Source of the DNA: Lobosporangium transversale
Lineage: Eukaryota
DNA length: 58,855 nucleotides
Assembly: GCF_002105155.1 (NCBI RefSeq)
Contig: NW_019028981.1
Span: 1,674,001 to 1,732,855 of the forward strand
Direction of reading: 5' to 3'
Part shown: piece after piece, positions 41,336 through 45,735 of the stretch
How the letters are laid out: each line of letters opens with the position of its first letter
Numbering within the stretch: position 1 is the first letter of the stretch
Translations under genes and position numbers: made by a program
The notes under the pieces: model-generated
Database searches by the model: none
What the model was told of the DNA's origin: nothing
The model's input: the letters and a program-made list of their open reading frames with translations, nothing else

Positions 41336-41815
41336 TTAACGGTCCTCAGCCCATTCATTCTCCTTCTTAATCTGTGCTTCTTCCTCAGGCGTAAAATCGT
41401 TAACGATGTTGAAGGCCTTCCGGATTTGCTCGGGAGTTTTGCCTTTAATGATGTTAGCAACGGTTTTGCAACCAACATCAAGCAATGGCTTAATATCCAA
41501 GTAATTGGCAGCCAAAATTATCTCGAACAACATCTCCTGATCGACTTGCATAAACTTCATGTCCCACTCTTCGATATCGTTTGAACGCTTGCGGGGGTCG
41601 TCTGTCTCATCTGAAACTTGAATAGGATCGTTACGATGATGCTCGCAGTACTCGATGACTTTAGTTAACACTGCAGCCGTGACGTTAGGGAGAGGGATGG
41701 GTGCGTCGGACTCCCCGACATCCTCAAGCATGTTCTTGATCAAGATCGAACGTTCGGCCACCTCCTTGTCGATTTTGAACTCCTGGCCGTCAGAGGAAAC
41801 GAGAATCACAGACAT
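41336..41815 (-). CDS. SKP1: SCF adaptor Skp1, intronless, 159 aa
   Basis: [67 protein letters not shown]. Confidence 0.97.
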
Positions 41816-42027
41816 GATGGCAATTTTAAATATTTTGAAGAAAGAGATGAATATGCAATTTTTTATTTCGTGTGGCCACATGTCCAAAAAAAAAAAAAAA
41901 AAAAAAAAACACAGCCACATTTTATCTAAATCCGCCTTGTACAGCACCAAAAACTGTTCAGGTCATGTGTCACGTCTACAGAACAAAAAGTGATGGCCAG
42001 TGCATGGCATGGCACTTATTACGACCT

Positions 42028-42059
<32 letters not shown>

Positions 42060-42199: not shown

Positions 42200-44340
42200 G
42201 AGAATAGTCAGTGGGGAAGCTGAGGATGCATTGACAGGCATGTACTTTGTGACGTGTGTCAGTAGCGGAAGGTGGCTATCGAGGATGTAGGCCATGCTCT
42301 CGCTACCCATTGTATCGGTCCATGTAAATGCCCCACTCACCACAATACTTGCTATGGTTCTTCAGGTTTCTGAGGACGCCGTTGCAGCTAAGGCATGGGC
42401 ACTTGGCATTGGTGAAGTATTCATGTATGTCCACGAGCGTATGTCCCAATCTCCCTTGCCTATTAAGCATATCCAGAAGGATTAAGGTTAGAGTAGTTCC
42501 GGAGGCGGCCGTATACCTTGATAAAGTTGACTCAATTTCTTATAGAAACGGCACAACAATTTGACATGCTTGTTATCTGCCCCCGTGAACTGAGCCTGGC
42601 CGATTCCGAAGACGCTATGCTTTTCGATCTTCTTGGCTACACCTTCTGTACCTCCTGTCATGTCCGCTATAACCGCCACATAGCCGTATGAATAAAAATA
42701 GAAATGCCTCTGAGGTGCACTCCCAAGTCTCGGTACGTAACAGCCACGGTCCAAGAGGGCATGGTTACTGTAGGGAGTCAGAATAGAGCTGCTCCTTATT
42801 GTTCTGGATAATGAAAAATTCAATATCAGACATATCCTCATCGAGCTTCTCTGCTTCAAGCTTTTTGTTCGGACGATGGAGGGCATACAGAGTATCAGTA
42901 TTGATGCGTTACGATCCTCCTGATGGATTATCTTTGCCAACCGTGGGCTGTGCGATAGCAGGAGATCTACTCGATGAAGACGGCTTTTTAGAGATGATTG
43001 GCTATGACTGGAGTGGAGAGCGAAACCTTGATCTGGAGACGTCATACTACGTTCTGGGTGAAGGTAGACTTGTTTCTACCAAAGCGTAGATGGAAAAAAA
43101 AAAAAAAAAAAAAAGTTGATGCGGATGGGTTTTATTTTAGCCGTTTGAAGGATATTTGTGCTCGAATGATACGACGTCTACTGCAGGATTTTGTGGCCTC
43201 TCTCCGTATGGTCTTCTGCAACTGGTGTTTCATGCACGCGTGCGAGGGGTGACTGTTGCCTTCGGTGAGAATCTATGAATTGGTGCATCTACAAAGCGTA
43301 TTTGGATATCTGGCGGATCAAGCAGTTTCGAGATGGCCGAAGCCTATTTGTCACAAAATATCCTGATTTTCTGTTCGAATTGCTTAGAATTCCATCGAGC
43401 CCTATGCACTTCTCAGTGACCTTGCAGTACGCAGTTACTCTTTCTTGCATGATGTCATTAGACTCCATCTCCTTATTGCCTTTGATGATCATTGAGATGT
43501 TTTCTGGTAAGAGCTAAGTCAAGGAGATCAAAGTTGTTTTTATTATTGTTGCCAGGGCAGGAGCCTTTTATTGAGGTCCCGCCATGACCGTCACCCAATG
43601 TTCTGGTCTTATGAATAAAAATGGAAGTAGCCCTGAGGTGCACTCCTAAGTCTCGGTACGTAATAATCATTGCATTGGTCTTGATGTCTAATCTGGTGCG
43701 TTTGTTCCGACGTTATTTTGGCACACAGGCTAGGGTTACGAGCTGGCTTGGTGACGAAAACCCGAACACAGACATCACATCGCCGATGTTGTAGGGCCTA
43801 AAGTTTCGCAGATTGGGAAGAATAAGAAGCACCGGTCGCAGGTTCCTAAAAGCAAACATGCCGAACCATTGGCGCAGACTATACGGCGAACGACATGGTC
43901 AGGGGCATCTGGTGGGGCGGCGCCCAGAGCGTGAGCAATGGAAGGCCTGCCTCAGATGGGCGAATTCCGAATACAAGCCATGGTCCGGGATTCAATAAAT
44001 CAAAGCAGTATTCGATTAATCAAGCAGCATCTGAATGTTTCAATCAGTGTCCAAAGATGCCCATTTTAAGCGCAAGGTGGTCTACTGGGGGTTGTTTAAA
44101 TCCCAATCTACAAATATGCTGCATATTCATACCATCCTATCGCTCATGTGCGATACTGGTGCGGCTGGTCAACCCATGGCGCTGACCAACAAACACCAAT
44201 TACGCTTTGAGGTTGGGGCAATCTATGTTCGGTGCATGCTACTGCCCCATTAATACAGACTGATCAGCCGTGTCCGCCCGACATCACAAGCCGCCTGGCT
44301 TGGTCGTTGTTTTTTTAAAAACGCGATTAATTTCCGAAAA
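42200..44340 (-). mobile_element. Decayed PIN(XPG/FEN1-like)-TnpB/Fanzor-like element, copy 2
   Basis: Minus-strand fragments: LIAFLKKQ, PSEAG(L)IA (EAD position), RRIVCANGS-MFAF (DSD position), QLVTLACV...DIKTN (H3TH-like), DMTGGTEG...VFGIGQAQF, GHTLVDIHEYFTNAKCPCLSC...KYCGEWGIYMDRYN, GSESMAYIL. Confidence 0.78.
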
Positions 44341-45735
44341 GGCCTGTATGGCAGAGATGCAAAACCTATCATCCTTGTTGATCTATAGCTATCCTTGATA
44401 AATGCAAGGTAGAGGTGGGTTAATCGGATGGCCAAAATGCAGGCTTTCTTTCCTACCGTATGTAGTAGCAGAGCATGGCTACGATGACAGACTCAATTAT
44501 GTGTGTGTGAGAAAGAGCTACAAAGATGATATCTGTGCAAAGTAGGCGGGAGTGAGAGCGCTAAAAGGCAATAGAGGCATGGAACGATGGAGGAGAAGAG
44601 GGAGAGAAAAACAATAAAGAGATATAAAGAAAAGAACGCGACTACACAGCCATAGAGTGGAAAATGCATATTCAAGCACAGCACATATGGGTTTTTTATA
44701 TGCATACACTTAAAAAAAGCACCGGCCATAATTACTCTTCATCACTCCTCGCGAAAAAAGAAAAATGGTACACTGGCCTCCGCCAGTGCAACGAGTAAGG
44801 TTTTTGCTACACCAAACCAACTTGCCAATCAAATATTACATCTGCATCTTTCAGTCGATGCTGTGCTCTATGGCCACAAAGGCGTCTTTTTTTCACCTTC
44901 ATTGTCATTTGTTTAACTATCAATTCATCATACAAAATTAATATTAAAGGAATAATGACAGCAGGGTATACAAATGATCCTTCTTATCAGATTGAGGACG
45001 AGGATAAGGATGAGAATGAGTACCAAGAGGAGCGCAGTAGTAGATTTAGCCATATAGAGGGCACAATTCATTGAAATATACCAAGAGCATAGTAAGCAAC
45101 GAGAACCAAGGTAAGGTCTTTATTGTAATCCATAGATCCTCGTTAAATAAAAGTTTATGTTGAGACGACTGCTAATGCAACATTACTCCCTCCCCAGACG
45201 AGTGTTCGGATAAGAGCAGGCTTTAATAAGGCTGTTAAGTTGAAAAAACATAGTTCTTTTTTGAAGGATCTGATGGTATTTGGGCTATGTCAGCTTCTAT
45301 TTATTCAGGTAATTTGAAGAATTTGAAGATATTTAACAGGCTTTGTTCATTTTCAAGTAGAAACTAGATAGTAGCCTCAATGACCTGTTGCTAAACATCC
45401 TAAGTATGGATAGTTTTCCAAGCCACGCATAACGCATTAGAGATTTGTGACAAAAATATTAATGTCGTGTCCAGGAGCACGGACGATTCGATGCAGTGCG
45501 CTGGATGGCTTCATTTTTACTTGAGAAGCTTTCAAGGAAATAATTTTTTTTACATGCAAACCGCATATGTCGCGAACATCCAAACTGATTTACCACGTGA
45601 GAGTCGTCTTGGCATAAGACTTTGCGACTTGACATGACCTTCTCTACACATGAATTCATTACTCTCTCTCACAAGTATATACTAACTACCCTCTCTTCTT
45701 CCCCTTGTATATTTTCTTGTCCAATTCAATACAGG

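Follow-up and report, generated by a model that had tools for sequence, protein, structure and literature searches.

A broken remnant of a PIN-Fanzor1 fusion gene points to a probable family of two-nuclease proteins in Mortierellaceae

Enzymes of the FEN1/EXO1 type act on 5' ends, and members of the FEN1 family are also able to cut the 5' ends and flaps of RNA. In AcademX the accessory nuclease belongs to the XPG family and is found together with an Academ DDE transposase, TIRs and a target duplication of 3-4 bp. The characterised Fanzor and TnpB proteins, to our knowledge, contain a single nuclease site, and the ends that they make are processed by the host. Fanzors are described by the motif D-X(125,275)-[TS][TS]-X-X-C4 zinc finger-X(5,50)-RD (PMC3627910), with the RuvC-II Glu six residues before the zinc finger (PMC13565253); characterised representatives of Fanzor1 are SpuFz1, GtFz1 and PpFz1 (Bao and Jurka 2013, PMC3627910; Saito 2023, PMC10432273; Xu 2024, PMC11423790). 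Cleavage by SpuFz1 leaves 5' overhangs (PMC10432273), and the present model of OMEGA nucleases is one of restorative homing (PMC13565253). Double-strand break repair needs the FEN1-like G5 in the case of poxviruses (PMC9415595).

PIN-headed sequences are already present in published tables. Judged from the first 400 letters of its entries, Table S2 of Yoon et al. (PMC10711439) holds 21 PIN-headed proteins, from Mortierella, Podila, Linnemannia, Entomortierella, Dissophora, Haplosporangium and Amoeboaphelidium, and two curated Mortierella Fanzors in Table S3 begin after the PIN region. The terms 'XPG' and 'PIN' occur neither in the main text nor in the supplement of that paper, and six accessions of the subfamily discussed below are all absent from its supplement file. 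Likewise, 'XPG' is absent from the main texts of PMC3627910, PMC13565253, PMC10530073, PMC10432273 and PMC11423790, and from the supplement of PMC10530073. For the natural fusion of a flap nuclease to a Fanzor we found no description in these parts of the Fanzor/TnpB literature; one could sit in the supplements of Bao and Jurka, Saito or Xu, or in Repbase.

The locus analysed here lies in a eukaryotic stretch of 58,855 nucleotides (the window) with intron-split genes. Between an SKP1 gene (41336-41812, minus strand) and a BRO1-domain gene (plus strand, from ~45690), decayed pieces of one gene family lie collinear on the minus strand, from about 43960 to 42236. In a frameshift-aware alignment to a profile of 21 family sequences the pieces follow the order of the family and score 168.7 bits, against 18-25 bits for seven controls (the plus strand, the reversed sequence and five shuffles). 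No open frame runs across the relic, and Pfam returned 0 families in nine minus-strand frame segments. The relic is a dead, broken remnant of a PIN-Fanzor1 fusion gene, with the following features:

43895-44372, minus strand: candidate XPG-N half of the PIN domain with a decayed ExD motif (suggestive only)
43662-43888, minus strand: XPG-I region and first part of the H3TH motif (tblastn, profile)
43493-43663, no strand assigned: dispersed genomic repeat of ~170 bp inside the H3TH coding stretch (depth, loose ends)
43257-43492, minus strand: rest of the H3TH region and the helix after the PIN domain (tblastn, profile)
42777-42965, minus strand: middle of the Fanzor part, likely a REC/WED remnant (tblastn, profile)
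42687-42742, no strand assigned: 55-bp end fragment of the same ~170-bp repeat, at the large RuvC-I deletion (89% identical to 43610-43663; high depth, loose ends)
42536-42686, minus strand: coding remnant before RuvC-II with MTGGTEG, VFGIGQAQF and KH (aligns with proteins P0003-P0005; profile positions 1018-1082)
42460-42535, minus strand: likely intron remnant of 76 nt (gap in the profile alignment)
42315-42449, minus strand: RuvC-II Glu (42422-42420) and zinc finger (tblastn, profile)
42236-42316, minus strand: RuvC-III and C-terminal tail (tblastn to P0014 residues 1086-1112; codons)

On the PIN side, 43662-43888 matches protein P0001 with 54% over 67 aa (tblastn, E 1e-14) and P0014 with 42%, and corresponds to profile positions 180-256, while 43257-43492 matches residues 82-152 of P0001 (tblastn, E 6.4e-6) and profile positions 257-297. 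At least four of the seven acidic PIN residues are mutated: inspected by eye, DSD has decayed to GSA, the NDY of the H3TH motif is apparently frameshifted with its D read as N, and the ExD motif has become EAG at 43953-43945 (EAG-L-x-IAH against EADLCIAR in the family). Further upstream LIAFLKKQ (44330-44307) and IFVDWD (44117-44100), both on the minus strand, stand together with EAG at roughly the family spacing (again by eye), and in three alignment tests of the XPG-N half (44372-43895) 99, 72 and 66 of 100 shuffles scored equally well. An initial annotation of the locus had listed XPG landmarks here. Its LIAFLKKQ and LVTLACV (43742-43722, minus strand) are where it placed them, whereas its EAD and DSD are in fact the EAG and GSA given above; LIAFLKKQ, as part of the XPG-N half, is suggestive only.

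Segments between 43250 and 42970 have chance-level profile scores, and from the family spacing ~500 or more coding bases seem to have been lost there. The middle of the Fanzor part (42777-42965) aligns with P0014 residues 605-663 (tblastn, E 4.7e-4) and profile positions 632-656 (27.9 bits), after which RuvC-I is deleted: near 42760-42690 ~350 codons are gone and the profile jumps from 658 to 1005. A W-L-R-x-x-W match at 42755-42714 falls mostly inside the repeat fragment and was for that reason discarded as evidence of coding. The likely intron remnant (42535-42460) ends in TAG and its first base differs from GT; its codon position is that of the GT..AG frame breaks in two further loci of the family, L001 and L002. 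The window contains 23 long runs of A or T (10-49 nt), for example at 43094-43114, 42028-42054 and 41886-41909; one of them lies in the relic, where a TAG comes after it on the minus strand, and perhaps represents the end of a former intron.

The zinc-finger region (42315-42449) matches P0004 with 50% (tblastn, E 1.9e-10) and scores 73 bits over profile positions 1083-1128. It reads VDIHEYFT (42434-42411), CPCLSC (42401-42384), YCGEWG (42347-42330) and MDRYN (42323-42309) on the minus strand; the spacing from Glu to zinc finger is as in the family (HEYFTNAKC), and the fourth Cys reads Trp. RuvC-III and the tail are shifted by one base relative to the zinc-finger frame, so that GSESMA (42307-42290) lies in another frame than MDRYN, and SEN reads SES. 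The initial annotation had the RuvC-III D changed to Y, an artefact of this 1-nt frameshift, since the next frame still has the D codon, at 42316-42314 (D-T-M-G-S-E-S-M-A). Of the RuvC D-E-D triad the relic keeps only the E in frame. This E, at codon 42422-42420, had been recognised correctly, as had the positions of the motifs VDIHEYFT, the zinc-finger runs, GSESMA, LVTLACV and LIAFLKKQ, all on the minus strand.

Copy number was judged on contigs of public sequencing runs. Outside both repeat pieces the relic has single-copy depth at 80% likeness, a level at which more diverged relatives could escape. Runs X1, X3 and X4 come from three studies, and one of them may be the source of the window sequence. 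Over the unique parts of the relic their listed contigs agree with the window at every letter and have 0 gaps, so the breaks are real and an assembly error was rejected as their origin. The spliced run X7 covers SKP1, a Sec7-domain gene and the BRO1 gene and reaches the relic only at the repeat pieces, which says nothing either way on expression of the relic. The same X1, X3 and X4 runs hold a second SKP1-like sequence, ~81% identical to window positions 41429-41611 (35 differences per 183 bp). In run X6 the contigs over 43990-44208 differ solely by C>T (73 places) and G>A (55 places), as in a bisulfite-converted library; at 44021-44178 all 34 of 34 G are converted, four of them in CpG, so that this strand looks unmethylated there.

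The ~170-bp repeat reaches a summed contig depth of up to 8072 in run X1, against 124 for single-copy DNA, and its best-covered places have 17-26 contigs in each run. Its copies have diverse loose ends at 43493-43517 and 43663, it is flanked by a short degenerate duplication (CAATGATTATT and CAATGATCATC on the two sides), and it ends in CTCGGTACGTAA; the repeat is also seen in contigs of RNA runs. Neither inverted ends, an Rfam match at the gathering score nor a significant fold was found in the repeat, and the analysis showed no link between it and the PIN-Fanzor element. The repeat is unclassified and could be a non-autonomous 'ghost' element.

As an enzyme the copy in the window is useless, and its value is that of a pointer to a family. 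A HMMER search of 1.84 billion representatives, using one frame of the relic read through, gave at least four matches (P0001-P0004). P0001 matches the PIN side and is XPG-I/H3TH-like (E 9.7e-14, with XPG_I below its cut-off); the zinc-finger side is matched by two Cas12f1-like TNB proteins, P0003 and P0004 (E about 7e-4, PF07282 above its cut-off). P0002, a repetitive protein, was rejected as a homologue and judged a chance match. A profile of these matches led to P0006 (1,183 aa), and a search with P0006 found at least 11 further proteins from Mortierella, Podila and Linnemannia. Scoring in the HMMER search and in this one covered the best ~8,000 candidates. Together with P0006 these make at least 12 matches of 758-1502 aa, 10 of the 12 with a precomputed PF07282 and 8 of the 12 with PF07282 above cut-off. 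Intact relatives exist as single predicted proteins of ~1,150-1,550 aa in Mortierella and Podila, among them KAF9574392.1 and KAI8345209.1. All named close relatives of the relic are from Mortierellaceae, where intact relatives are common, and its host is probably one of these fungi.

All seven acidic PIN residues, the RuvC D-E-D triad, the four Cys and the arch Lys/Arg are kept together in 10 of 21 aligned sequences, which form six clusters at 90% identity. In the numbering of P0008 these are D34/D85/E171/D173/D191/D193/D243 for the PIN part, K92/R99 for the arch and D948/E1121/D1158 for the triad. The remaining 11 proteins are partial or divergent, and most of them show gaps. The RuvC-I residue is E in P0011 and the RuvC-III residue is G in P0005; P0017 combines the full set of seven acidic PIN residues with a tail that cannot be aligned. 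The suggestion of the initial annotation that PIN and RuvC nucleases were fused thus holds in predicted single proteins, and neither of the outcomes it had named against itself occurred: the triad is present in these homologues, and both parts share one predicted protein in each of the six clusters.

Both sets of catalytic residues are retained across sequences that are only 27-46% identical in the PIN domain. Pairwise identities of the PIN and RuvC parts correlate (Spearman 0.81 for seven representatives, that is 21 non-independent pairs), and trees of the PIN, middle and RuvC parts (eight sequences) agree on the supported splits, with long branches for P0015 and P0021. Both observations are expected of a stable fusion. 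It might be argued that PIN and Fanzor are two adjacent genes joined by gene predictors, since the family has introns and several of its entries are fragmentary or split (for many relatives the annotation gives a PIN piece or a RuvC piece on its own, as in P0001 and P0003-P0005). We regard this as very unlikely, given that independent annotations in two genera agree on the fusion and on a conserved linker motif, and that P0006, taken from a Logan contig of 4,910 bp by a caller that we infer to work without splicing, has one frame across both intron positions. In addition, 21 PIN-headed proteins of 765-1401 aa from seven genera are found among the Fanzor HMM matches in Table S2 of PMC10711439. 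A fused PIN-Fanzor family very probably exists.

Beyond these proteins, the ESM Atlas holds a cluster of 58 members with a representative of 1,312 aa (score 0.98). For the PIN part alone the nearest ESM Atlas clusters are XPG/G5-like by their features and mostly from large DNA viruses, which we treat as a lead only. A word-index search with a 78-aa piece of the zinc finger confirmed 0 of 381 candidates and a scan of IMG/VR 0 of 50 pattern matches, and of 214 in a metagenome scan two were confirmed, both 3' parts only.

Profile and structure comparisons point to two folds in the intact proteins. The family profile matches Rad2/XPG, FEN1 and EXO1 in the PDB at positions 1-290 (E 5e-8 to 5e-4, Rad2 having 5e-8), and SpuFz1 weakly (E 0.075 and 0.022). 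AlphaFold models of P0014 and P0008 have a mean pLDDT of 60.7 and 68.8, respectively (mostly >80 in the PIN domain of P0008), and a pTM of 0.47-0.48 with a disordered linker. In Foldseek searches with predicted models, which the initial annotation had suggested as a check, both FEN1/EXO1 and Fanzor1 are matched. Fanzor1 structures (SpuFz1, GtFz1 and PpFz1) take ranks 1-7 for one model, with E 3e-10 to 1e-7 and a TM-score to target of 0.37-0.57; for one model FEN1 (3q8k, E 5e-9), SpuFz1 (9ceu, E 7.9e-9) and EXO1 (E 2.9e-8) appear together. Viral Fanzor-like and XPG-like proteins are matched as separate entries. The intact proteins are thus predicted to combine a PIN domain of the FEN1/EXO1 type with a RuvC domain of the Fanzor1 type. 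P0008 carries the Fanzor motif (D948, TS 1124-1125, zinc-finger Cys 1128/1133/1148/1151 and RD 1157-1158), and its distance from E1121 to C1128 fits the RuvC-II spacing of Fanzors, as does that of the relic; on such protein features the family would probably be placed in Fanzor1.

Several entries indicate mobility. M. alpina has four entries with 98-99% identity, and Mortierella sp. GBAus27b has three with 98%, in each case on contigs of different length; from the accession series each set appears to come from one assembly. The multi-copy members include the CAO3565455.1 group and the KAI8345209.1 group. Given such near-identical copies under one species label, the element has likely moved recently. 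The 3' flanks of the relic, L001 and L002 (three short, diverged flanks) share no blastn match that could mark a guide-RNA scaffold, their folds are no better than those of shuffles (z -1.3, -0.2 and +0.5, respectively), and no Rfam match at the gathering score was obtained. Neither element ends nor convincing TIRs were found near the relic; a 14-bp inverted repeat at 41848/44661, ~40 bp upstream of the SKP1 start, was treated as chance. A transposase relic was looked for in the 1.3 kb upstream of the relic, in the 590 bp that follow L001 and in the sequence beyond L002, and none was seen. The L002 copy, which has in-frame stops, is converged upon by a DUF2278 gene (E 1e-51, about 720-1232, minus strand) ~150 bp from the Fanzor stop, and this gene bounds the 3' end of the element copy. 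L001 has a 25-bp direct repeat (88%) at 2796-2820 and 2942-2966, 400-560 bp after the Fanzor stop.

Our main reading is that the intact PIN-Fanzor protein serves as the homing nuclease of a mobile element, to which we assign a probability of roughly 45%. Guided by RNA, the Fanzor part would cleave the empty site; the PIN domain tethered to it, whose conserved residues and predicted fold suggest an active 5' nuclease, would remove or resect 5' strands at the Fanzor break and so expose 3' ends. These ends might favour gene conversion from the element-bearing chromatid, so that repair would copy the element back; to reach new loci the element would depend on a transposase from another source. The guide RNA, the cutting, the end processing and the homing are inferred. 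Against this reading, homing alone leaves the copies at new loci unexplained, most of the fusions are known as predicted gene models, the sequences resemble SpuFz1 weakly, the model pTM is 0.47-0.48, and no guide RNA, ends or transposase were found.

Two other readings concern spread to new loci. In one, the PIN domain serves transposition itself, trimming flaps or ends at the intermediates of an outside transposase, while the Fanzor part independently guards the donor site. The accessory nuclease of the AcademX DNA transposon lineage (PMC10045372) and the multi-copy, near-identical members, which imply transposition, are in its favour; the lack of a transposase relic beside the three loci is not, and a stable fusion to a Fanzor would be unnecessary, which leaves this role fairly unlikely. 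The other dispenses with a transposase altogether: the Fanzor part would open new sites, and PIN and host repair would paste in a copy. Here the same three loci count in favour, as do the joint conservation of both nucleases and the Spu-1 Fanzor elements, which are also without a transposase between their repeats (PMC10432273). However, the view is limited to short flanks, with no 5' flank of an intact copy, and Fanzor guides derive from the element's own flank and thus point at the old site rather than a new one; we consider such spread decidedly unlikely.

The PIN domain might also act on RNA, either trimming the guide RNA out of the element transcript or clearing the RNA-DNA hybrid after cutting. 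This would agree with the ability of FEN1-family enzymes to cut RNA 5' ends and flaps. It would also fit the source of Fanzor guide RNA, which is the transcript of the element at its 3' end (PMC13565253). Nonetheless, SpuFz1 obtained its guide in yeast without a PIN domain (PMC10432273), and the family retains the helical-arch K/R and the H3TH of DNA flap nucleases and exonucleases, so that a role in RNA processing is unlikely.

If the homing reading is true, a fusion with two active sites would show a selfish element steering repair from end joining to self-copying, which bears on the open question of the roles of Fanzors in their hosts; it would also provide a ready-made RNA-guided cut-and-resect enzyme for genome editing. 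Tests are practical, as intact multi-copy members exist in culturable soil fungi. The broader proposal that PIN-Fanzors form a widespread, undescribed class of eukaryotic RNA-guided proteins (in Mortierellaceae and an aphelid), acting as a cut-and-resect homing machine, possibly born in large DNA viruses and possibly free of a transposase, is doubtful as a whole.

Among known systems, AcademX resembles the family in being a eukaryotic DNA transposon with an accessory nuclease (PMC10045372). In the family, by contrast, the nuclease is fused to a Fanzor, and no Academ transposase is seen in the short flanks.

With FEN1, EXO1 and XPG/Rad2 the family shares seven acidic positions, the arch Lys/Arg, the H3TH and an EXO1-like ExD; its DG, ExD, DSD, DY and H3TH align with Rad2 and FEN1, and the modelled PIN domain reaches a TM-score to target of ~0.6 against FEN1/EXO1. 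Identity to these enzymes is ~15%, and they differ from the family, which is fused to a RuvC nuclease. Pfam cut-offs are missed (best XPG_I 16.5 bits against 24.9, XPG_I_2 18.3 against 24.2), and XPG_N has no match in the family proteins scanned. Judged by sequence, the PIN part is a divergent branch and not an orthologue of FEN1, EXO1 or XPG.

Fanzor1 and the family have in common the D-X(125-275)-TS-XX-C4-X-RD motif, a RuvC-II Glu beside the zinc finger, introns and a fungal host, and the predicted REC/WED/RuvC/TNB fold appears to be that of Fanzor1. The differences are an extra N-terminal PIN domain of ~300 aa with a basic linker, a total length of ~1,150-1,550 aa against up to ~800 aa for Fanzor1 (PMC10711439), and a WED motif that reads TNG in most members of the family and TDG in Fanzor1 (PMC10711439), with P0017 also having TDG.
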